Virus record (IMG/VR): IMGVR_UViG_3300029967_000162
Location: 1-64,000 of that record
Length of the DNA stretch: 64,000 nt
Origin: a virus
Taxonomy: Duplodnaviria > Caudoviricetes
Direction: 5' to 3' (one strand)
This document shows positions 1 through 60,396 of this stretch, piece after piece; within the stretch, counting starts at the first letter, position 1, and the number at the start of each line of letters is the position of its first letter. The notes under the pieces were generated by a model that was given only the letters and a program-made list of their open reading frames with translations, was not told the DNA's origin and did no database searches. The translations under genes were made by a program, and so were the position numbers.

Positions 1-8
1 CTTGTCAT

Positions 9-47
9 TTAAGTTTCACCTACTTGCCCAGATTTTTCTATGCAGAA
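9..47 (-). repeat. 39-bp conserved site, copy 1 (TTCTGCATAGAAAAATCTGGGCAAGTAGGTGAAACTTAA on - strand)
   Basis: Exact reverse complement of 156-194; positions 1-47 are identical to 4601-4647, suggesting a paralogous leftward gene just outside the window. Confidence 0.95.
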
Positions 48-155
48 CAAGATTGAGGTTGAAGGTCATTCTAGAAGGCATTCTGTTTCAACCAAACAAA
101 ATCTTTAAAGTCTTCAAGACTTAGTGACTGCTAATGACTTAAATCTCCTTTATTA

Positions 156-194
156 TTCTGCATAGAAAAATCTGGGCAAGTAGGTGAAACTTAA
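156..194 (+). repeat. 39-bp conserved site, copy 2
   Basis: Ends 11 nt upstream of ATG 206; 148-216 is identical to 8485-8553 (69 bp). Confidence 0.95.
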
Positions 195-205
195 CTAGAA
201 GAGTC

Positions 206-1063
206 ATGGCAAATGGACCGATGCTGACAGAAGAAGCGGTCAATACCCTTCTTGAGACACAAATGAAACAGGATGGCACAAGCACGTCTCCAAAGTACTT
301 TGACCCTGTGAGCAAGTTGAATGGAGCTGTGAGATGTCCAGTTGTAGATGACATGGATGATGGAGTAGAGACAAAGATTGGAAGTGTCACATACTTCTAT
401 TCATTCAACATCCCCTCTAAGTACCAAGCTGGTGATCTCTTCTTTGACATGGACATTGTCAAAAAAGCAAAAGAAAGAAAGACTGCTGGATCTCTTGTCT
501 TGACTTTCTCTTACTCTGCTTCTACAGCAGCAACTAAAGGAGATTCAATCACAGTGTGCATCATTGCTTCACAGTCACAAAGCCAAGGCAGCTTGTGCAC
601 ATCATTGACGCTCCCAGCAAATAACAGCTCTGTCACATGGACAATATACCAAGACGAGATTGATGACTTGAATGATGGCCATATCACTGGCCTCTCTGAC
701 TTTGACCAACTTGAGTGCTATGGCCCAAGCAACAAGTATCAGGCACAAGCTCAATTGCAGCTCACCAACAACACAAGCAATTCAGTCACTGTCAGGATTG
801 TGAAGAATGCAACAACATACTCAGCAACTTTGCAAGTCACCAATGACTACAGCTACACAGTCACTTACAATGTTGAGTGGTCTTCTGGTGCATCATATGG
901 CAATGAAGTGCAAGCTGGAAAGACTTCAAGCTTCACAGTCAACATGAGCTCATCTTCAGAGAGTGGCACTGTCACGTTCTACAATGGGAACACACACCTC
1001 ATAGATGAAGATTGGTCTGGTACATTCACATCAGGCAAGACAACAAAGATACAGATAGGCTAG
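206..1063 (+). CDS. Ser/Thr-rich virion protein, putative tail fibre/receptor-binding variant (MANGPMLTE type)
   Basis: 285 aa, beta-rich; N-terminus shared with the 8543 gene (MANGPMLTE..PKY..YFY..Y.AG.LF), C-terminus divergent. Confidence 0.55.
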   Translation: MANGPMLTEEAVNTLLETQMKQDGTSTSPKYFDPVSKLNGAVRCPVVDDMDDGVETKIGSVTYFYSFNIPSKYQAGDLFFDMDIVKKAKERKTAGSLVLTFSYSASTAATKGDSITVCIIASQSQSQGSLCTSLTLPANNSSVTWTIYQDEIDDLNDGHITGLSDFDQLECYGPSNKYQAQAQLQLTNNTSNSVTVRIVKNATTYSATLQVTNDYSYTVTYNVEWSSGASYGNEVQAGKTSSFTVNMSSSSESGTVTFYNGNTHLIDEDWSGTFTSGKTTKIQIG

Positions 1064-1088
1064 ACTAAGCTAGAGGTTGTCAAAGGCA

Positions 1089-1122
1089 AAAGAAAAGAGC
1101 ATGCAATGCATGCTCTTTTCTT
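1089..1122. terminator. Bidirectional intrinsic terminator
   Basis: Hairpin aagaaaagagcatgc-aat-gcatgctcttttctt between convergent genes. Confidence 0.75.
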
Positions 1123-1146
1123 GATCTACAACAGAGCAACTTGCTC

Positions 1147-2178
1147 CTAAAGCGTATTCCATACAAGGCCTTCAGTCACGACATAGTCTGCATAGTCCTT
1201 CACAGCTTTTGCAGTAGCAATGCCAGTCCTGCCATTTGCAACATCGGTGCTAGAGTCAACATAAGTTGCAGACACAACGACAGCACCATCAGTATTCTCA
1301 GCAGAGATGTACTGGTTATCACCTGCAACACTCACTACAGGAAGAGCTACACGATTGACACTAATGATACCATCAACTTCACCGACAAATGACACATAAT
1401 AGTTCTCAATACTGGTGTCAACATAGTCAAGATTTGAGATCTTATCATCAATCTCATCAATGTCGATGAGGTCAGTGACATTGACAGAGACGACATCACC
1501 ATTAGAATTGGCAATAGTGAGGTCGATGTAAGTAGAGCCATCAGAGTGAGTGTTGACCTCACCTTTCTTGACAACCATGTCTTTAGGGATGTTGATCACA
1601 CCAGCAGTCTTAGTGCCTTGAGTGATTGTGTAGACGGCTGCATAGTCGTTGGAATTTTCATCCTTTGTTATTGTGATAGAAGCATCAACTGCTGCATTAG
1701 CAAGGCGGGTAGAGATGTCAATGAGAGAGGCATCTACAGTCTCATAGACATATGTAGAGAGGTCAACTACAGTTGCTTCATCTGCAACAAGAGATGCATC
1801 TACCTTGCCAAGGCTTGTCTCAATTGCATTGACACTTGTGTCAAGCTTTCCAATGCTGCCGTCAACTACATCAAGGTGAGAGTTTATCTTGTCAAACTCA
1901 GCCTTAGAAGTGGGGTAGAAGCTGACAGAAGAGTTCACTACATTGCCATTGGCATCTACAGTCGTGAGAGTGAGCACCTTAGTAGAAGAGTCATCTGCTG
2001 TAGAGAGGACAGCATCAAACACATTGGAGGTGTAAAGCCTGCCAGTTCCATCTTTCACCTGGCCATAAACCCTAGCACCATTTCCATCAGTGAGAGCAAG
2101 ATAATAAAGGCCATTAACATTAGGAGAAGATTGTGGATAATTAGCAAACGCACCTTTATAAAATTTTACTTGTGCCAT
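1147..2178 (-). CDS. Putative virion fibre/structural protein with D[AT]S[ILV] repeats
   Basis: 343 aa; repeated VDASL/DTSV/DLST coiled-coil-like motifs; INIPKDMVV motif; ATAAATA upstream. Confidence 0.55.
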   Translation of the reverse strand: MAQVKFYKGAFANYPQSSPNVNGLYYLALTDGNGARVYGQVKDGTGRLYTSNVFDAVLSTADDSSTKVLTLTTVDANGNVVNSSVSFYPTSKAEFDKINSHLDVVDGSIGKLDTSVNAIETSLGKVDASLVADEATVVDLSTYVYETVDASLIDISTRLANAAVDASITITKDENSNDYAAVYTITQGTKTAGVINIPKDMVVKKGEVNTHSDGSTYIDLTIANSNGDVVSVNVTDLIDIDEIDDKISNLDYVDTSIENYYVSFVGEVDGIISVNRVALPVVSVAGDNQYISAENTDGAVVVSATYVDSSTDVANGRTGIATAKAVKDYADYVVTEGLVWNTL

Positions 2179-2292
2179 TCAAAATAACTTTAATTTTAAT
2201 ATTTATTAGACAATAGGAAAGAAAAGCTGAAGCAAATGCAATGACAGTCATCTTCTTGATAAATTTAATGAGTTAAAATTTCTCTTTTTAGA

Positions 2293-3018
2293 ATGATGTC
2301 TGTCATGAAGCATATAGATGAAAAAGTTCTTGGAAGGGCTGAAGGTAATGAATTGTACACCAAGATAGATGATGCAATTATCAAAGAAGAAGCCATTGCC
2401 AAGAACATCGTGCAAGTGAACAAAGAGTCTTGCTGCGTCAAGAGTGACTACACCCATGATCATCCAGCACAGATTTGGCTATATGGCAAAGATGAGAAGC
2501 ACAACCCTACACACCTTGTCAATGAGCCAAAGTATTGGAGGCTTGAAGGTGATGACATGTATCTAGACACCAAAGACCCAGGAGACTTGTTGAACATCCA
2601 AGTGTCTGGATATTATTATGGTCCAGTGAAAGTCGGGAACATAGCTGGTTCATACAAGATCAACTTTGTTGACCATAGCTTCACGCCTGGGAGGAGAGAC
2701 TTCATAGTGAGGTTGAAAGATGTGTTGAGGTGGCTTCCACAGCATGCAGAGCAGCTCACTGTCAGCTTTGGGAATCTCAAGTACTACCAAGTTGGGTTGC
2801 AATCTAAAGATGTCTTGGAGCTGTTCAAGAGCATCTCAGAGCGCTGCACAACTGTCACATTCTTTGGGCTTGGGCCAACCATCAAGAGGTCAGCTGTGCT
2901 GAGGAAGAAGATGGAAGCAATCTACAACAGCATGGAGAATCCAAGCAACATCCCATTTGAATGGTGAATAGACAGAGGAGACAAGTCCATGCTGATCGAT
3001 GCAAAAATGCTAGCATAA
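2293..3018 (+). CDS. Hypothetical protein, paralogue of 3023-3742
   Basis: TGA 2965 read as Trp extends the ORF to TAA 3018, 4 nt before the next start; shares EK.L..Y.KID and P.HA...T motifs with its neighbour. Confidence 0.7.
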
Positions 3019-3022
3019 AAAG

Positions 3023-3742
3023 ATGACACTGAATGAGAAGATACTTTCAAGCAATCCAACACAAAGTGCTTATGGCAAGATAGACAATGAGATAAAGAGA
3101 GATGAAGTGAGGAAGGAGCTTGATGCATGCAATTGGCAAGGCATGTTGAAATTCATGGGGGTCAAGCAAGCAATCATATTCCCACCATATGAGTCTAATC
3201 CAAACCCAGAGAAGAACAGCATCATCATACAAGACAATGCAAGAATAACATCTCTGGAAGGATATTTAAAGATAACTATATTCATACCAGAGTTCATCAG
3301 AGACTACCACATAAGAGTGGGGGAAGTTGATGAGTATGAGTTGGCTTGCAGAGAGAAGTGGTATTCAAATGAGATAGTGTGTGGGTGTCCAGGCAAGCGA
3401 TTGCATGGAGATGAGCTGCTTGTAGAGATGTTCCCAGAGCATGCAAAGATGTTCACCCTCAGGATTCCTGGTGCAGCGGTGGTCTTTGATGAGAGGCAGC
3501 TCTTGCAGGTCTTCAAAGAAGCTGTCAAGTGCTCAGACATGACTAGGTTCAGTGACATGGCAGAGCATCTTGAGAGATTGTGGAGAGCATGGCCGGAGAT
3601 GAAAGAATGCTTTGAAGCTGTCTGGAATGACAATAGAGCCAATATCAAAGGCAAATTCATGATAGACTTCTTTAGATACAGCTCACCAATGATAGACTGG
3701 AAGCCATATCTTGAGAAGTATGGCATTGACAAGCTTCAGTAG
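3023..3742 (+). CDS. Hypothetical protein
   Basis: 239-aa ORF beginning MTLNEK. Confidence 0.7.
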   Translation: MTLNEKILSSNPTQSAYGKIDNEIKRDEVRKELDACNWQGMLKFMGVKQAIIFPPYESNPNPEKNSIIIQDNARITSLEGYLKITIFIPEFIRDYHIRVGEVDEYELACREKWYSNEIVCGCPGKRLHGDELLVEMFPEHAKMFTLRIPGAAVVFDERQLLQVFKEAVKCSDMTRFSDMAEHLERLWRAWPEMKECFEAVWNDNRANIKGKFMIDFFRYSSPMIDWKPYLEKYGIDKLQ

Positions 3743-4591
3743 CTAAGATCTTGTAGATGCAGTCCAAGTCTGCGCTGTACCAGATATCATACTCCGCATT
3801 TCATACCATAGATTGTGTGTAGCAACCCTATTTTGTGTTTGTACACCTCCAGTAGCAACTACATAGATAGCACCATATGTCTGTTGGCTATCTGATGGGC
3901 TGCTTTCGGTTGCGAAGTTAGACCAAGTGAGTCCAGAGACAGACACCCCACTCTTCAATTCAGCTCCAGTACACCTACTCATGGTATAGTACTGTCCAGA
4001 TGAATTATAAAGTGCTTCTCCAGCTTTGGTGCAAAGACATACAATATATGATGTTGATGATGTTGCTCCAGCCCATACTATCTTCAATGCTCCTTGGCTT
4101 GAAGAGCCAGAAGTAGCTTTTATCTCTATTGTGTAGGTGCCCCCTACTGTCACATAGCCCGCCCCAGAAGTGTCTCCACTATAAGTGTATCCTTTCTTCA
4201 AGCTCGAGTCTGTTATCTTCCAGCCACATGGGTAGCTTGAAGTCTTAGAAGTCATTATGACCGACTTCTGTGTGTTTGTCAAGTCTAGTGTTCCAGACAC
4301 TGCTCTTTGGAGCTGCACTGTCAGCTTGTCCCATCCAGATGCACTGAGCTTGACATATCCAACTCATCCTCTAGTTATATCTACTAAGCACACAAGTTGG
4401 TTGTCTTCATATGAGGTCTTTGTTGCTGTACACAATGCATTGACTTCAAATGCTGCATTGCTAGCCCCATTCTTCTCTAGATCAACTGTCTGGTCATATC
4501 TAAGGCAATATGTGTTATCATATGTGTAGTTAGTGTTACTGTTAATGTATGTGGAGATGTCATCTCATTTTGCTATCACATAAGAAGCCAT
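3743..4591 (-). CDS. Ser/Thr/Gly-rich virion protein, putative tail fibre/receptor-binding variant (MASYVIAKW type)
   Basis: ATG 4591 with in-frame TGAs at 4565 and 4364; 282 aa; N-terminal IAKW..I...C..Y...SY.DNQLV.LVDI motif resembles Bacteroidota-phage tail-protein N-termini. Confidence 0.6.
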
Positions 4592-4608
4592 AGGATGTGC
4601 CTTGTCAT

Positions 4609-4647
4609 TTAAGTTTCACCTACTTGCCCAGATTTTTCTATGCAGAA
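4609..4647 (-). repeat. 39-bp conserved site, copy 3
   Basis: Identical to copy 1; ends 17 nt upstream of ATG 4591. Confidence 0.95.
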
Positions 4648-4719
4648 TAATCAGGAACCAAGTAGATTGTTAGCATTCAAACACTTGTAGAGACATTTCA
4701 ATCTCTTAAAATGTTTTGT

Positions 4720-4750
4720 TAAATTTGTTCTAACAATTTGAGTTATTTAT
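4720..4750. promoter_or_regulatory. Overlapping promoters: Bacteroidota-type -7 box (TAAATTTG, + strand, 4720-4727) toward the recombinase and late-type ATAAATA (- strand, 4744-4750) toward site copy 3
   Basis: Motif matches only. Confidence 0.4.
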
Positions 4751-4759
4751 CACAAGATC

Positions 4760-5575
4760 ATGAAAACGTCAGAGTTTGAAAAGGTATTCACACAGTGCTA
4801 TCCATCAATGCACAAGCTGCTCAATGAAATCAGAGTGGTCACTGGGAACCTCTCAACAGCTAACTTGAAGAGAGCATCTGTGCAGATGAAAGTCTTCAAG
4901 CACTTGCAATCTGCATATGTTGGAAACACAGCAAATGCTTACATCTCATGGACAAAGAGAGTCTTGAAGAAGATGAAAGTTGAGTGCATAGACTTCAAGC
5001 TGCACAAGTGTGACACGATGAACATATCTCTAGATGTTGATGAGCTGAAGAGGATAGAGAAGCTCAAATTGAAGAGCATGAAGATGGAATATGTGAGAGA
5101 CTTGTTCTTGCTCTCATGCTACACTGGGGCTAGGTTCTCTGATGTTGTGAGCTTCAGTGGGAGCAACATATGTGATGGAATGCTTGTCTGGCAACAACAC
5201 AAGACAAAGCGTAGGTGTGTTGTGCCAGCTACACAAAAAGTGAAGAGGCTTGTGTCACAAGTGAGCATGATGAGATGCAAAGCATTGCCAAACAACATAG
5301 TGAATGTGTGGCTCAAGGCAATATGCCAACTTGCAAAGGTTGACAATGAAGTGACTGTGATCAAGAATGGCAAAGTGATGAAAGTGAAGAAACATGAAGC
5401 AGTGTCATTCCACACAGCTCGAAGGACATTCTGCACAGTCTTGTATGAGAATGGAGTAGATTTGCTTGATGTGTCTAAGCTCGCTGGTCATTCATCTATA
5501 GAGATGACAAAGCGATATATCACATCATCAATCAAGCAAGTGTCTAAAGAAAAGTTGTTGAAGTACTTGATGTGA
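4760..5575 (+). CDS. Tyrosine recombinase (integrase/invertase family)
   Basis: TGARFSD (R), KT, SFHTARRTF (H-x-x-R), LAGHSS (H), TKRY (Y); terminal TGA probably a real stop. Confidence 0.92.
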   Translation: MKTSEFEKVFTQCYPSMHKLLNEIRVVTGNLSTANLKRASVQMKVFKHLQSAYVGNTANAYISWTKRVLKKMKVECIDFKLHKCDTMNISLDVDELKRIEKLKLKSMKMEYVRDLFLLSCYTGARFSDVVSFSGSNICDGMLVWQQHKTKRRCVVPATQKVKRLVSQVSMMRCKALPNNIVNVWLKAICQLAKVDNEVTVIKNGKVMKVKKHEAVSFHTARRTFCTVLYENGVDLLDVSKLAGHSSIEMTKRYITSSIKQVSKEKLLKYLM

Positions 5576-5580
5576 GCCCT

Positions 5581-6483
5581 CTATCCTTCCACCAAATATC
5601 TGTTTCGCTTTGCAATCTTCTCAATGACAACTTCATTCATGGCAAGCCCAAACTCATAAGTTCTCATCACTTTCTCTTCTGCTTTGTCAATCAAGAGAAG
5701 TGACTTTTTCTTGAAGAACCTCTTGAATCCTTCTATTGTTTGACATTTAGGTTCAAGCTTCATGAAACATGATATAGCTTTGAGCACATCATCATTAGAG
5801 GTGTTGTCGAAGTTGTTTGTTAGCCAAAGCTTGAAGTCTTTGTAAATCATGAGAATCTCCGGCTTCTCTCCTTTTCTTCCAATGATTCTATGCTTTCTTC
5901 CATCTATTGCGGCTTCGACAGAGAATGCATTCTTCTCTGTTGGGTCTCAAAGCATGTATATGATGTCTAGCATATATGCAAGATTGTTGCTCATAGGAAG
6001 CTTTCTTAGCTCTATCAACTCTTCATAGTCAATGTTGCCATCTTTCTTGAGCACATTGTCTATCTTTTCTTGCTTTTCATTCTTGTTCTGGAATCTTTCA
6101 TATATCTCATAGATATGGTTGATCTCATGACATATTGCTCTTTCAATTCCAATAGGATCTATAGATCTTGATATAATCAGATTGATAGAGACTTCACAAA
6201 GTTGATTGTTTTCTTCATCATACTGTACACAATTCTCACCTAAATACTCTACATATGAATTTGTGTATTCAACTGAAATAGTGATGTCTTTGAAGTCATC
6301 TCTCAACAATGGATACATCTCTTGTGGAATTTGCATTTGATTTCCAATGCCAACTTTTGGAAATGCATTGATGACATAGTTTCTTATTGCAATGACATCT
6401 GGCCAATATCTATAAGCAGCTAACCCACTTTTTTCACATATTAGATATGGTATCTTCTTCATTCTGTCAATTCTAAATATCAT
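5581..6483 (-). CDS. HExxH metallopeptidase-like family, paralogue 1
   Basis: AAYRYWPDV, CHEINH, YML*DPTEKNAF with TGA 5947 read as Trp. Confidence 0.75.
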
Positions 6484-6502
6484 AATATATTGTACAATTT
6501 CA

Positions 6503-7429
6503 TTATTGCAAAACATATTTGTGGCCTTCTGCTAAGTACCTATTTCGCATTGCTATCTTTTTCATTATGCTTTCATTCATAGAGAGCCCAAACTCATAAG
6601 TTCTCATCACTTGCTCTTTAGCTTTGCTGATCAAGAACAACGACTTTTTCTTGAAGAAATTCTTGAAGCTATCTATTGAATCATATTTTTGGTTGAGTTT
6701 CTTGAAGCAATCTTTAGCTTTAGATATGTCGTTGTTTGAGACTTTGTCAAAGTCATTCAACAAGAACTTTTCAAAATCTGCATAGATCTTGAATATCTCT
6801 GGTTTTTCACCTTTGCCTCTTCCATCTCTATAAAGTCTTCCGTCTAACACAGCTTCAGAAGAGAATGCATTCTTCTCAGTTGGGTCTCAAAGCATGTATA
6901 TGATGTCTAACATATATGCAAGATAGTTTGATATTGGTAGTTGTCTCAATTCCATGAGTTTGTCATAGTCGACATTTCCATCTTTTGCTAACAACCTTTC
7001 TATTGTTTTCTTTTCATTCTCTCTATCTTTAGGTCTTTCATATATCTCATACAGATGATTGATTTCATGGCAAATTGCTTTTTCAATCTCCACTAACTTG
7101 AGGTCTTTTGAAATATCTAAATTGATAAATGGATCACATAACCCTCTTTCTTTACTATATCCTACACCATTAGATCCACTGCATTCATTATGCAAGTTAG
7201 TGTATCTTACATTGATTTCAATTCCATTGAAATCTTCGCTCAACAATGGATACACTTCACAAGGAATGGTGAAGTCTTCATATAGCTTTACTTGTGGAAA
7301 GTGATTTATGATATAATTTCTTATTGCTATGACATCTGGTCAATATTTGTAAGCTGCTAGGCCGCTTTTCTCATATACTAGATATGTTTTTCTTTCTATT
7401 CTAATTCTTGGGCCGTTCCAAAGTAACAT
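6503..7429 (-). CDS. HExxH metallopeptidase-like family, paralogue 2
   Basis: ATG 7429; TGAs at 7340 (AAYKY*PDV) and 6887 (YML*DP) align with Trp in paralogues. Confidence 0.75.
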
Positions 7430-7452
7430 TATTCTTGTGTCTTTATTTTTGA

Positions 7453-8372
7453 TTACCACCAAAAGCCCTCTACAAGATATTGGTTCTTCCTTGCGAGCTG
7501 CTCCATCACTGATTCTTTCAGCTCTAATCCGGTCTCATAGCATTTCCTCACTTGTCTCTCAGCTCAATCTATCAATTTCAATGAAGTGCCTTTGAAATAT
7601 TTCTTGAATCTCTCAAGGTCTTTATATTTCTCTAGTAGCTCTTTGTAACAACTTTTTATAGTCTCAACTTGTTCAGCTGGCATGTTGTCTCATCTTTCAA
7701 GAATGAATTTTCTAAAGTCTTGATATGTCCAAGGATTCCAGGGATGCAAGTCTTGCCATATGGGTTCTTGTTTTTTCTTGCATCTATTGCTACTTCTGTT
7801 GAAAATGCATTTCTTTCAGATGGATCTCAAAGCATATACAAGATGTCAAGACAATATGCAACATCATTGTTTGTTGGGGTGTCTCTCAAGTTCATCAATA
7901 CATCATAGTTCAAGTTGCCATTTATTCCTAACAATGCTTTTATTGTTGCATCTTCATCTTTCTTGTTGTTAGGCATCTGATACATTGCATATAGATGGTT
8001 GATCTCATTGCAAAGCACTTTCTCTATGCCAACTAAAGAAAGACTGTATGAAATCCATAAGTTCATGTATGGCTCAATGAGAGTCTCTCCATCAATGTCA
8101 TAGCTTGCTCCAGAGTTTCCTTCATATTTGTAGTTCTTTCTGTATTCTACATGAATCTTCAAGTCTTCAAATGTATGCAAAAGAATTGGATACCTATCAA
8201 CAGGTATGTCTATTGCATTATTTGTAGCACTAGGATACAAGCATACAATTGCATCACGTATTGATATCACATCTGACCAATACTTGTAAGCGGCTAACCC
8301 TCTTTTTTCATAGAAAACACATGGATTTGATTTTTTAGTTGGATGGCTTATTGAACTGTGATAGAGCAACAT
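7453..8372 (-). CDS. HExxH family paralogue 3 (NEINH variant; frameshift near 7731)
   Basis: AAYKYWSDV, CNEINH, YML*DPSERNAF; C-terminal half (YQDFRKF...NQYLVEG) continues in another frame. Confidence 0.65.
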
Positions 8373-8492
8373 GATGTTGTGCCTAAATTTTAATTTATAA
8401 AGATTTATGAACTATAAGGTCAAAAATCAACTATAAATTTTTTAAATTCTTATTAAATATTTATCATACAATGACTTAAGCCTTCTTTATTA

Positions 8493-8531
8493 TTCTGCAT
8501 AGAAAAATCTGGGCAAGTAGGTGAAACTTAA
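8493..8531 (+). repeat. 39-bp conserved site, copy 4
   Basis: Identical to copy 2; ends 11 nt upstream of ATG 8543. Confidence 0.95.
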
Positions 8532-8542
8532 CTAGAAGAGTC

Positions 8543-9298
8543 ATGGCAAATGGCCCTATGCTGACTGAGAAAAATTGCAATGCAAACTCTCATGGAACTT
8601 TGTTTTCAAATGCAACAAACAGATGTCCTAAATATACTGAAGTCAATGGTGTGTTTTCTAAAGTTAGTGACTCATCATATTTCTATTGCACTGTGCTCTC
8701 TAATTATAGAGCTGGTCACTTGTTTTGGCAGATGCAAGTGCAAGGTGCACCATTGCTCACGGTTGATGCATCAAACTTTGACTCTATTTCAATTGCTTTG
8801 TCCCCTATAGCAACAACAGTTGGAAAGATAACAAAGCAAGTGATGCCTTACACTGGACAAATATCATGAGAAGTCAAAGATTTTTCAACAGCTAAAGGAT
8901 ATTCAGACATCTCTACAAACACTTCAACTGGCAAGGTAGTCTTGACTCCTGGTGTAGAATCAAAAATCAAAGTGTATGCAGTTGAGTCAACTGTTGGATT
9001 GACAATCACATTGAAAGGTTCTTCTTCATATACAGTGATTTTGGTTTGGTGTGCAAACACTGCAGTTGGAACTGTGCCTTCAAAGTATGATGTGATATAT
9101 AGTGGCATCAAAGCTACATACACCTACACACAATACAAGACGCAAAGTGGCTGGCAGTCACAACAAGACACTGGTAGAAACTGAGTTGCTGCTCTCAACA
9201 ATAACGGCAACAAAGTCCTTGCCATCATTAGTGGTGCCAGTGCAATTGGTGGGATGGCAAGCTATGGAACTGCTCAATCTCTTACGATTACAGTATAA
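8543..9298 (+). CDS. Ser/Thr-rich virion protein, putative tail fibre/RBP variant (MANGPMLTE type)
   Basis: TGAs at 8867 and 9182 read through give 251 aa ending at TAA 9298; N-terminus homologous to the 206 gene. Confidence 0.6.
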
Positions 9299-12057: not shown

Positions 12058-12519
12058 TTTTTCGGGAGGGCCTGTCAGTCTCTAGAAGAAAAGAAGAGTC
12101 TTCCAGTCAGTCTCTCTCATACTCTCTCTGCTAAGCCTACTAGATCTGTCTAGTTTAGTTAAAGTTTTAACTAGATCTAGTTAAAACTTTAGCTAAAGTT
12201 AAAGTCTTAACTAGATCTAGTCTAGTTAAGACTTTAACTAGATCCTTCACCGACCTTGTCCCAGACAAGAATTATATCGACTTCAGGGCGGAATGTCTAC
12301 AAAATTTTGTTAAAGTTTTATTAAAGTTTTGTTTCAAAATTGTTACAAAACTATTTCAATGGATTCTTATCTCATAATTTTCTATACTTCAAAGGCATCT
12401 CCTGAAATCATGTTCAAGAGATGCCCTAGGAATGCGACATTTTGCCCTAGTGGGCGGCTAAGCATAAGGATGATTAACTAATCAAAAGTTGGATTTTGAA
12501 GGTTTGCCGCTCCCTGGCA
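12058..12519 (-). repeat. ~460-bp non-coding element, copy A (promoter + 4 dyad repeats; candidate origin or ncRNA)
   Basis: Inverted, closely similar copy at 59937-60396; TAGACA-N17-TATAAT on - strand at 12299-12271; AGTTAA-N4-TTA(A/G)CT dyads at 12157, 12179, 12197, 12224. Confidence 0.9.
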
Positions 12520-12536
12520 CAAAGTTTCTAGAGGCC

Positions 12537-13625
12537 CTACTTCAGCGGCTTGTGCACTCCAACCATGTGGTTCACCACGACAGGCTTTGTTGCTTTCTGC
12601 TTGTATTGGACCTTTGGCCTGCTTGTGATCCTCTGGTATGGTATCTTTGTCGACTTGATTGTGTGCACTACATTGCGCTGTGTCCTCTCCAAGAAGATGT
12701 GAGTCGGCTCTGGCATCTTGCCTTCCAAGTTGTCTTGGAGTGCTTCATTTACACTATTCTTCACATGCTCAAAGTCTCTCACACCAAAGTCATTCACGCA
12801 TATGACTTGCCTGTGGCTCACTCTGATTGCTCGACATATTCGTGTGAGGTCTCTGTCTTTTGCTGCAAAGTACTCAAAGCTTGGACCTCCATCAACATGC
12901 TTGCCTAGCAACATGTTGAGGTATGTCCACACATACTGGTTGCAGTTCTTCCCATCTCTGACAGGTGTGACCCTCTCATAGAGGATGCCCCTGCACTTCT
13001 TCCAAGCTTCTTCTTGCATGCTCTTGAGCATTGGGAACACTGAATGATCAAGTGACATGAACTTCTCTCTAGAGAAGTCTCTGCCTGTGAGCTCGCCTGC
13101 AATCCTCTGAGCGACTTTGAATGATGCCCTGACTTGAGACCCAAACATGTTCCTACCATAGCAGTCTCTCCTGAATGTCCTGAACCGCGGCTTGCCATCT
13201 GTGAAGAAGTCTTCAGGTGTGCACATAGAGGTGAAGAACAAGTCATCATTCACATAGATGAAGTGCTCTGACAAGCCTGGGACAGACGACAAGAACATCT
13301 CTATCGTGCAAGAGTTGAACGTCGGCAAGAACTTGCCAGGGATGAAGTCCTTGTGGAACACCACTTTGACTTTAGGGTCATCAAGCCAGGTAGGCACTTG
13401 TGACTGCTGCATGACTACCAAGAAGATGCTGTTGATGAATGGCAAGTTCTTCTCAGCAAGCTTGATGAGCAAGTTGAGGTTGTCCCATGACCTGTACCTG
13501 TTGAGGCTGTCACCAGACTCTTCCTTCTCATGGTTGAGCTTTGTGAACTTGCGATGCACACTCTGCCACTCTGGGTCAGTGCCGTCGACATATGGCACAA
13601 CAAGGTCTATAGGATAGTCTACCAT
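12537..13625 (-). CDS. Stealth-family hexose-1-phosphate transferase
   Basis: CR1 PIDLVVPYVDGTDPEW; CR2 LPTFNSCTIE and SEHFIYVNDDLF; CR4 ICVND. Confidence 0.9.
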   Translation of the reverse strand: MVDYPIDLVVPYVDGTDPEWQSVHRKFTKLNHEKEESGDSLNRYRSWDNLNLLIKLAEKNLPFINSIFLVVMQQSQVPTWLDDPKVKVVFHKDFIPGKFLPTFNSCTIEMFLSSVPGLSEHFIYVNDDLFFTSMCTPEDFFTDGKPRFRTFRRDCYGRNMFGSQVRASFKVAQRIAGELTGRDFSREKFMSLDHSVFPMLKSMQEEAWKKCRGILYERVTPVRDGKNCNQYVWTYLNMLLGKHVDGGPSFEYFAAKDRDLTRICRAIRVSHRQVICVNDFGVRDFEHVKNSVNEALQDNLEGKMPEPTHIFLERTQRNVVHTIKSTKIPYQRITSRPKVQYKQKATKPVVVNHMVGVHKPLK

Positions 13626-13629
13626 CTCA

Positions 13630-14559
13630 CTATGCTTTCTTTGTTGGCTTCCAGGTCCTGACCTGAGAAGTGATGTGAGCAACCTTTGGAGCAGACACAA
13701 CTCTTGTGCACGTCTTCCTCACGTTGAACTGTGAAGTGCTCATAGTCCGAGGCCTAACAGGCACTCTCTGTGGGATTGCCTGCCGCTTTGGGATGCTTGT
13801 GTCTGGCTTGATCTCTGAGAGAGGCTTTGCTTTGTTGAGCAAGTCATTGAACCCCCTCTTCACTCTGTCTTGTGAGAACCTGTAATGCCCTCCTCAGCCA
13901 TGGAGCCTGTTCTCTTTGCCAAGCCTCTTCTTTTCATCACCATACCGAGACAAGACATAGTCTACAGACAAGAACTTGCAATGGAGCAAGAAGAGTGGCT
14001 CTGTGCACCACTTCACATTGCCAATCGGCTTGCAGATGTGGTGACCTTCATAATAGTTGATGTCTTTGATCTCTTTGGGGTTGAACAAGCAGCATTTGCT
14101 GAATGACCTGTCCACAGCACCTCTTGTCACTTGCTCTGTGATGAGATGCTCTTCTTCATAAGTTGGAAACTTCGTCGACACCATCTGGATGCCAGTCGGC
14201 TTGGCAATCGTCTCTCCACGAGACTTCATCCTCTCACACCACTCTCTGAAGCTAGATCCATCTGGCACACACGGAATCTCATCCATGTCACAGCACCAGA
14301 CAAAGTCTACATCTCCACTCTTGTGCTCTTTCCAGCAGGAGTTGAGGACTTCTTTGTTGAGCCTGTCATTCAGCTCTTTGCCATTCCCAAAAGTCCTGAC
14401 TTCTACAAATGGAGATTGCTCTCTCAAGAACTCTACACTGCCATCACTAGATCCATTGTCATACACAACTGCATGGACTGCAAAAGTCTTCCACCAGTCA
14501 AGCATGAATGGCAGGATCCTCATCTCATTCCAGCAAAGTGCATAGACTCATATCTTCAT
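13630..14559 (-). CDS. Glycosyltransferase family 2-like protein
   Basis: MKI*VYALCWNE, YDNGSSDGS, CDMDE (DxD); TGAs at 14548 and 13894 read through. Confidence 0.8.
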
Positions 14560-21758: not shown

Positions 21759-23003
21759 TTATAGCTCAACGACTTTGTTGATTCTCTGGCATTCTCTGTT
21801 GAAGACCTTCTTTGCATAGATGTCAGATCTCTGCATGCTCTCATCCCAGTCTGGGTCATCATATCCCTTCTCTAAGAGCTTCTCATGCACAGCTTTGTCA
21901 TACTTCCAATAGAGCAGCCTGCACACCCTCTGTATCTCTCTGTTCCTGACTGCCTGTGTGCTGCCACCAAGGTGTTGGTAGTACAAGCACTTAGGTATCT
22001 TCACCATGACACCATCATTGAGGAATGTCCTTATGATGATGTCCATGTCATCTAGCACAGAGAGGTTAGTGAGATGCCCATTGATCTTGTGGTAGAAGCT
22101 CTTCCTCCATGCACGCAAGTGGTTCGGCTGGTAGTAGATTGTCCTGATTGACTTGTAGTTGATGTCATTGCTCAAGTACTCATTGAACTCTACACCATTG
22201 TAAGTTGCCTTTCCATATTCTGGCTTGAGAGCCATGCCTGATGTCTCTGCATCTCCATACCATACTGACCTTGTGTCTCCATCATAGAGCTCCAAGCAGT
22301 CAGAGTAGATGAAGTCTGCATCTGGGAACTGCTCAAGAGCCTTGCACATGCACTCTAGCATAGCTGGATCTGCATCATCATCATGATCTATCTCTATAAG
22401 CCAGTCACCATCAGCTGCCATTGCCACAGCATGCTTGTTGAAGCCGATCACACCATGGTCTGTGACATTCTTGATGATGTGGATTCGTGGGTCCTTCTTG
22501 GCAACCAAGTAGCTAGATGGGCTCTTCTCATCATCAGAGCTGTCATCGATGATCCACCAGTTCCAGCTTGAGTATGTCTGCGCAACAAGAGAACTATAAA
22601 GTCTCTCTACCTGCCAAGTTGGTGTGTTGTAAGTCGATGTGAAGAATGAGAACACTGGTGAGTTCTTGTAGCTCTTGCGACCAATGTTGTATGTGAATGT
22701 GCTGATGATTGCATTGTTGATCTTGCCGATGTCATAGTCTTTGAACCACACCCAGCGCTTCCTCCACTCAAATGACATTCATGAGAGGTCTGGCGCAGCT
22801 CTGCCCACTGTGATGATGATGTCCGGCTCTCTGAACTCTGTGAGCTTCTCTAAGATGTGTGATGCATCTTCTATCACACAGACATTGTACTCACACTCTT
22901 GCCAATCTGGGTTGCAGCACCATCTAGAGTTCAAGACTTCTGGTGAGTAGTCATGAGACTCTGCCTGTGAGTCTATTATGAGTGCACTTATTCGTTCTTG
23001 CAT
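21759..23003 (-). CDS. Glycosyltransferase family 2
   Basis: FTSTYNT, IIDDSSD, EIDHDD, DDMDI; TGA 22779 joins the N-terminal ORF. Confidence 0.88.
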
Positions 23004-43032: not shown

Positions 43033-43130
43033 GATGCCCTAGGAATGCGACATTTTGCCCTAGTGGGCGGCTAAGCCCAATTCTGAATAACTAATCAAAA
43101 AGTCAAATTTGAAGATTTGCCATCACCAGG
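43033..43130. repeat. Partial copy C of the non-coding element
   Basis: gatgccctaggaatgcgacattttgccctagtgggcggctaagc is identical to 12420-12463; further similarity through aactaatcaaaa..ttgaag.tttgcc. Confidence 0.88.
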
Positions 43131-59881: not shown

Positions 59882-59936
59882 CTTAAGATTTGTACTTTTT
59901 ATTTTTATCAAAATGGTTTGTTTCTTCTTAAATTTA

Positions 59937-60396
59937 TGCCAGGGGGCGGCAAATCTTCAAAATCCAACTTTTGATTAGTTAATCATCTTTGAACTTCTCC
60001 GCCCACTAGGGTAAACCTACACAATCCTAGGGCATTTCATGAAAGAACTTGAAGATTTAAGTTGAATTAGAAAAGCTAAGGACCTTTGAAATAGTTTTGT
60101 AACAAAATTGAAATATCTTTGAAACAAAACTTTAACAAAAATTTAACAAAATTTTGTAGACATTCCGCCCTGAAGTCGATACAATTCTTGTCTGGGACAA
60201 GGTCGGTGAAGGATCTAGTTAAAGTCTTAACTAGACTAGATCTAGTTAAGACTTTAACTTTAGTTAAAGAACTTTAACTAAAGTTAAAGACTTTAACTAA
60301 ACTAGACAGATCTAGTAGGCTTAGCAGAGAGAGTATGAGAGAGACTTCTTTCTGATGCTGAATCTCTACAGGAGACTGACAGGCCCTCCCGAAAAA
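59937..60396 (+). repeat. ~460-bp non-coding element, copy B
   Basis: Reverse complement of 12058-12519; TAGACA-N17-TACAAT at 60157-60185; four AGTTAA..TTAACT dyads. Confidence 0.9.

Follow-up and report, generated by a model that had tools for sequence, protein, structure and literature searches.

A candidate whole-gene switching locus with a tyrosine recombinase and repeated 39-bp sites in a TGA-recoded jumbo phage

Sites, recombinase and cassette genes

The stretch of DNA analysed here, hereafter the window, comprises the first 64 kb of the 134,147-bp IMG/VR contig IMGVR_UViG_3300029967_000162, the completeness of which was put at 24% by CheckV. At its left end lies a locus in which exact copies of a 39-bp sequence (the 39-mer) stand in the leaders of complete genes, here called cassettes, beside a gene for a Xer-like tyrosine recombinase (Table 1), and we consider that the locus is probably best read as a multi-site DNA-inversion system, a "promoter shufflon", in which the recombinase would drive the switching of whole genes. 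The source is a large (jumbo), gut-type, T4-like phage that reads TGA as tryptophan (Trp), which bears out the large phage supposed in a first-pass annotation made from the letters of the window; cassettes C and D, the three tandem paralogues and a downstream ATPase gene are intact only if TGA encodes an amino acid (Trp). The lineage was covered over 183 kb, made up of the 134-kb contig and a 48.7-kb sister contig, G001 (L008), which like the shorter contig L018 derives from sample 3300017492. A further contig, L017, is a Joint Genome Institute (JGI) contig from sample 3300029965, and two relatives were compared as well, L011 with 89% identity and L012, the recombinase of which is 54% identical to that of the window.

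Table 1. Positions of features at the locus and of repeats in the lineage (window coordinates unless G001 is named)
Feature	Position	Strand	Description
Site 1	9-47	-	Exact 39-mer; points left off the contig towards gene X (C-like start)
Hub, 108 bp	48-155		Between sites 1 and 2; its ends, Q (left) and P (right), are degenerate upstream arms
Site 2	156-194	+	Exact 39-mer; 11 nt before the gene A ATG
Cassette A	206-1063	+	285 aa; MANGPM-class N-terminus; no in-frame TGA
Gene B	1147-2178	-	Tail-fibre-like; own ATAAATA at 2200-2206 (-); no in-frame TGA
Two genes	2293-2967, 3023-3742	+	No assigned function; in the site 2-3 segment
Cassette C	3743-4591	-	282 aa; MASYVIAK class; two TGA read as Trp
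Site 3	4609-4647	-	Exact 39-mer; 17 nt before the gene C ATG; most symmetric copy
TAAATTTG box	4720-4727	+	Bacteroidota -7 type; 40 nt ahead of the recombinase start; kept in L012
ATAAATA	4744-4750	-	Late-promoter-like motif; directed across site 3 at gene C; also present in L011 and L012
Recombinase	4760-5575	+	Xer-like tyrosine recombinase; 271 aa; no internal TGA, stop is TGA; between sites 3 and 4
Three tandem paralogues	5581-8372	-	~310 aa each; HEINH (HExxH-like) motif; inside the putative invertible segment
ATAAATA	8458-8464	-	Faces the tandem paralogues
Site 4	8493-8531	+	Exact 39-mer; 11 nt before the gene D ATG
Cassette D	8543-9298	+	251 aa; MANGPM class; two TGA read as Trp
Sigma-70-like matches	4624-4651 (+), 152-179 (-), 8489-8516 (-)		The match at site 3 aims at the recombinase gene
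Dispersed repeat copies	12421-12527, 43034-43130, 59922-60038; G001 13606-13704, 22544-22666

The 39-mer occurs four times in the window, without a mismatch and in alternating orientation, at the positions and on the strands that the first-pass annotation had given, and the number of copies expected from 100 shuffles is 0. The claim that three of these copies precede a start codon by 11-17 nt held as well, with spacings of 11, 17 and 11 nt, and when cassettes E, F and G of sample 3300017492 are taken together with A, C and D the sites end 11-21 nt ahead of the ATG. The contigs of that sample carry more copies of the site, again alternating in orientation, which brings the total for the lineage to at least six. 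Allowing up to 6 mismatches, no further copy was found in the 134-kb contig and G001 beyond the pair that G001 itself carries; since the 39-mer is limited to the locus in both contigs, it is not a genome-wide promoter or leader, and the scatter before unrelated genes that the first-pass annotation had set against its own proposal was not seen in the 183 kb of the lineage. Scans of viral contigs for the site returned G001 only, exact and degenerate scans of metagenomes, among which near-identical records seem to be lacking, gave 0 matches, no match to the locus was found among GenBank phages, and searches for the locus by protein (recombinase; gene C) recovered nothing.

The cassettes are heterogeneous and fall into three classes of leader and N-terminus. 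Their N-termini had been described at first as related, which is true of A and D, with about 80 N-terminal residues in common (E = 4e-10 over 84 amino acids), but not of C, which has a different start and resembles D only weakly, in the middle region (E = 0.018). The leader of gene X, beyond site 1, had likewise been taken as identical to that of gene C; the 8 nt visible in the window do match, but the leader in L017 diverges right after those 8 nt, and gene X starts like C although its leader differs. Searches of Pfam and PHROG with the cassettes gave no match, homologue searches for A returned only a near-identical copy, cassette F and one weak match to a repeat protein, and exact look-ups of the genetic-code-11 fragments of G and D returned nothing. 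The ESM Atlas model of A is a low-confidence beta-sandwich with a template-modelling (TM) score of about 0.45, and the AlphaFold2 model of D, based on a 5-sequence alignment, has a predicted local distance difference test (pLDDT) score of 34. With no family and no usable fold to go by, the function of the cassettes has to be judged from their context. A 797-amino-acid collagen-repeat protein of L018, to which gene B is homologous (E = 6e-12), matches PHROG tail-fibre families (1.4e-28) and is encoded between F and G, and on G001 cassette E is separated by 1.3 kb from a T4-type portal gene. The tail-fibre or receptor-binding role assigned at the outset is plausible from this position of the locus among tail-fibre genes, and to judge from the neighbouring fibre genes the cassettes are probably interchangeable fibre-associated or adhesin proteins.

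The recombinase is catalytically complete, as had been noticed in the first pass: it matches PF00589 (4.6e-17) and the PHROG integrase families phrog_1 and phrog_216 (~3e-24), and its translation carries the R...HxxR...H...Y set as R125, H218, R221, H244 and Y253. It is Xer-like by size and fold only; its nearest families, XerA, XerC and XerD of NCBIfam, gave at best 43.9 bits (E ~1e-11), far under the cut-offs of 220-335, and it is a member of none of them. The locus recombinase is of the tyrosine type only and does not belong to the serine-invertase class of Gin, Cin, Hin and Min with its 26-bp gix/hix-type sites, and no second recombinase homologue was found in the 134-kb contig or in G001.

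Its distant kinship with the Xer families could mean that the recombinase serves lysogenic integration or Xer-like dimer resolution, with one site being attP- or dif-like and the others incidental duplicates, and the gene also avoids recoded stops in the way that integrases of recoded phages do (Borges et al., 10.1101/2021.08.26.457843). Such a role is nonetheless improbable given four exact copies (at least six in the lineage), all of them in gene leaders and alternating, and a recombinase that lacks an arm-binding domain. The site is, moreover, unmatched in 185,579 prokaryote genomes, where neither an attB nor a prophage copy was found, which leaves an attP/attB relation unsupported, and integration is not known from T4-like phages.

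The recombinase gene has no internal TGA and stops at TGA in the window (5573-5575), in L011 (955-957) and in L012 (947-949), the stop taking the same position in all three, and translation of the protein would therefore follow the standard code, whereas TGA stands for Trp in the genes nearby. A second gene, at 2293-2967, likewise has no TGA inside and terminates at TGA. TAnnTTTG was considered as a general early promoter and rejected, being not enriched before genes; it remains a weak lead for the recombinase gene, ahead of which the box listed in Table 1 lies.

Anatomy of the 39-bp site

A dyad occupies the upstream end of the 39-mer, with arms of ~11 nt on either side of a GCAT centre that is itself asymmetric. 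All copies have the same, perfect arm on the gene side, whereas the upstream arm, which extends into the flank, matches the gene-side arm at 9/11 positions at site 3 and at 7/11 at the others; at site 3 the upstream arm starts within the 39-mer and extends into 4648-4654. In L012 a diverged site stands at the same distance from the gene and forms a perfect 10-4-10 dyad, and one T-to-C change relative to the site of the window is mirrored on both arms. In L011 the arrangement is contained in one 2,093-bp contig, the two ends of which fall within sites, with the recombinase and a single paralogue between them. The 39-mer is thus supported as a sequence that behaves as a recombination site, having a dyad with an asymmetric centre, being confined to the locus and being kept beside the recombinase in diverged relatives, and its features would be in keeping with a recombinase target in which one arm is conserved and the other variable, and not with a promoter or a structured leader.

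The main alternative is that the 39-mer is a regulatory leader or promoter of a paralogous gene family, the cassettes of which are swapped by homologous recombination in the manner of early-promoter stem-loop (PeSL) cassettes, with the recombinase being unrelated. The phage is T4-like, and shuffling of this type is documented in such phages, where the PeSL cassette carries an early promoter and a terminator stem-loop (PMC2839356, PMC4122927). The two systems are alike in that short conserved intergenic repeats stand at gene boundaries where unrelated genes swap between related T4-like phages, and it also speaks for homologous exchange that sites 2 and 4 have 99 nt in common at 94% identity, extending into the coding region, and that the exact identity of the 39-mer continues for ~11 nt past the dyad arm. 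PeSL elements, in contrast, point the same way as their genes, are scattered through hyperplastic regions and lack a recombinase of their own, whereas the copies described here are restricted to one locus beside the sole recombinase gene, alternate in orientation and carry a dyad of protein type, which co-varies in a distant relative. The repeat itself is without a stem-loop, a sigma-70 promoter or ATAAATA: fold z-scores in the site region ran from -0.1 to -1.8, which gives no RNA folding signal, none of the Rfam families scored above threshold, and sigma-70-type promoters were not enriched. The abrupt end of identity among the copies at the gene-side edge of the 39-mer, where three unrelated leader classes start, also argues against exchange by homology, and all in all we regard this alternative as unlikely.

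Two further candidates were rejected, namely a structured leader RNA or known RNA family, which is ruled out by the absent fold signal together with the lack of an Rfam family, and an integron-like array, which is ruled out by cassettes that alternate in orientation and by the lack of attC-type hairpins. Each site contains a weak sigma-70-like match (9/12) directed away from its cassette, which could be due to chance.

Junctions in related assemblies

Sites 1 and 2 and the hub between them form a site-hub-site module of 186 bp that is 100% identical in three samples. A comparison of gene order in relatives, a check that the first-pass annotation had put forward, showed the same module next to different genes in different samples, since its neighbours are the C-like gene X and gene A both in the window and in L017, and gene E and the A-like gene F in G001. 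The 4,281-bp contig L018 runs from a site through F, the fibre gene and G to another site and then 39 nt into the P end of the hub. Both of its ends overlap an end of G001 by exactly 107 nt, which makes L018 and the G001 end neighbours in the k=107 assembly graph and indicates that F and G are both reached from the P end of the hub. The start of L018 coincides, in addition, with the first base of its site, and more than one sequence should therefore lie upstream of F. The window contig begins exactly where the flank of site 1 starts to match the leader of gene C, and longer repeats elsewhere in the locus were resolved by its assembler. The branching at contig ends matches, as indirect evidence, what would be expected of a population with inversion variants.

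Contigs terminate at or within sites in every assembly, as they might if the repeats or the differing junctions were an artefact of mis-joins at the repeat. An artefact of this kind is very improbable, however, in view of the fact that five assemblies, made from different samples with different assemblers, yielded the same sites and flanks independently of one another, and that the genes are intact on both sides.

Proposed switching model, known systems and neighbouring genes

ATAAATA stands 23-39 nt ahead of at least 14 gene starts in the contig, where a late promoter of the T4 type would be expected. Within the locus, copies lie before gene B and before the ATPase gene, and one faces the tandem paralogues; the copy at 4744-4750 (-) alone faces a site, and it is located on the segment that carries the recombinase. 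No ATAAATA was found in the 108-bp hub, on the strand facing D or within the 39-mer repeat, and both the motif directed at site 3 and the lack of one between sites 1 and 2 agree with what had been reported earlier.

We propose that the Xer-like recombinase acts on asymmetric sites, each in the 5' leader of a complete gene, and that crossover between oppositely oriented sites would swap the upstream context of whole genes; because every site stands in the leader of a complete gene, such a crossover would exchange the sequence upstream of entire genes. The 3.8-kb segment between sites 3 and 4, which bears the recombinase gene and one outward late-promoter motif, would face C as assembled and D when flipped, and C may accordingly be on in the assembled orientation and D in the inverted one. 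Inversions involving sites 1 and 2 could move A, X and the further cassettes E, F and G to the promoter-facing position. A single expression site for all cassettes is plausible, and other promoter classes are possible. We infer from this arrangement that inversion is happening, that one cassette is expressed at a time and that the cassettes have the roles given above. The inversion switch suggested in the first pass is in this respect partly supported, by the anatomy of the site, by a module joined to different genes across assemblies and by a single site-facing late-promoter motif.

Since the recombinase would be producible in the standard code of the host and most cassettes need TGA read as Trp, switching may be confined to an early phase before recoding, with its outcome being read late. 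The whole can be put together only tentatively, as a picture that is possible and on balance doubtful: a lytic-type jumbo phage in which a late promoter is movable on the invertible segment of the recombinase, and in which one of at least seven complete, unrelated fibre-associated genes would be expressed at once, with switching early, prior to recoding, and readout late.

Several observations weigh against an inversion switch. Sites 1/3 and sites 2/4 are direct repeats, and recombination between them would delete DNA that includes the recombinase gene. The exact identity over 39 nt exceeds the need of a core site, and some of the 39 nt may belong to a leader element. The motif at 4744-4750 is a 7-mer that lies 153 nt from the ATG of C as opposed to 23-39 nt elsewhere, and it overlaps the 5' leader of the recombinase gene, which could be the cause of its conservation. 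The cassettes, as said, offer neither a family nor a usable fold. With respect to the junctions, two inverted copies of the hub could account for part of the branching, the argument from contig ends hinges on the behaviour of the assembler, and G001 passes through a vertex that would be expected to branch. The samples may also hold different strains, in which case the junction differences could be evolutionary and not programmed, and among the contigs none carries one cassette in two upstream contexts end to end.

Tyrosine-recombinase shufflons of phages have already been published; those swap gene ends, and the switching of whole genes is known from Mycoplasma. In the vpma locus of Mycoplasma agalactiae, vsp of M. 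bovis and vsa of M. pulmonis, inversions by the Xer1/HvsR tyrosine recombinases put one gene behind a single promoter. The locus described here resembles these systems in that a small Xer-like recombinase is encoded within it and each of the complete, divergent genes has a short site within its 5' leader. It differs in that their genes encode bacterial surface lipoproteins whereas those here are phage genes, and in that the candidate promoter is on the recombinase-carrying, putatively invertible segment and sites are paired around a promoter-less hub of 108 bp.

In the Rin shufflon of Bifidobacterium prophages (PMC6109161) and in the tail-fibre shufflon of BV01-like phages (PMC13596623), alternative gene ends are spliced onto one constant gene. 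Both have, like the present locus, a phage tyrosine recombinase beside multiple short asymmetric sites ahead of variable cassettes in the tail or receptor-binding region, and here, as in Rin and R64, at least three sites in both orientations lie beside the recombinase. The pieces joined in Rin and BV01 are, however, C-terminal and fused in frame at 10-11-bp sites in temperate phages, whereas here the phage is a recoded, T4-like jumbo phage, and its site, 39 bp long and situated in the leader, would serve to exchange complete genes with start codons of their own. No C-terminal pieces fused to a constant gene, as in Rin and R64, are seen at the locus, each cassette having an ATG and a leader to itself, and none of the sites is entered by a constant reading frame from upstream. 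The R64 shufflon employs a tyrosine recombinase, Rci, and sfx sites with one conserved arm, one variable arm and an asymmetric spacer. Multiple sites of this conserved-arm/variable-arm design are common to R64 and the locus; unlike here, R64 exchanges C-terminal segments of pilV on a plasmid, and Rci is larger and has a C-terminal domain.

An invertible segment that carries both an outward promoter and the recombinase gene is found in the Hin H-segment of Salmonella, although Hin is a serine recombinase and acts as an on/off switch. The sap locus of Campylobacter fetus is similar in having an outward promoter between oppositely oriented complete homologues with conserved 5' ends, but its inversion is RecA-dependent and takes place over long conserved 5' regions. 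In the literature we found no paper describing whole-gene switching of this architecture in a phage; published inversion-based host-range switches of phages exchange the tips of one fibre gene. If our interpretation is right, a promoter moved among complete and unrelated genes would allow a much more diverse set of attachment proteins to be kept, and such a switch would exist in a very large, uncultured, code-switching phage, the host range of which is otherwise unknowable. Expression of the recombinase would then be linked to the genetic-code switch of the phage, and the 271-residue recombinase and its defined site make up a compact, testable pair.

For the tandem ~310-aa paralogues between sites 3 and 4 no family was found. 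The third of them (7440-8372) is frameshifted and has NEINH in place of HEINH, and L011 has one copy as compared with three in the window. Between the convergent genes A and B lies a hairpin with a 15-bp stem (window 1090-1122), which probably is a two-way terminator. The 797-residue fibre gene of L018 (699-3092) needs two TGA read as Trp and has an ATAAATA ~35 nt upstream; by eye, the C-terminus of its product resembles the self-cleaving chaperone domain of fibre and spike proteins.

On G001 the T4-type portal gene stands in the region that adjoins the locus (2770-8683), together with a SET-domain-like gene, a gene for a papain-like protease and one of 909 aa with no assigned function. A dispersed family of ~100-nt repeats, 80-93% identical and present in both orientations, is common to the window contig and G001 (Table 1), which indicates that the two contigs belong to the same phage lineage.

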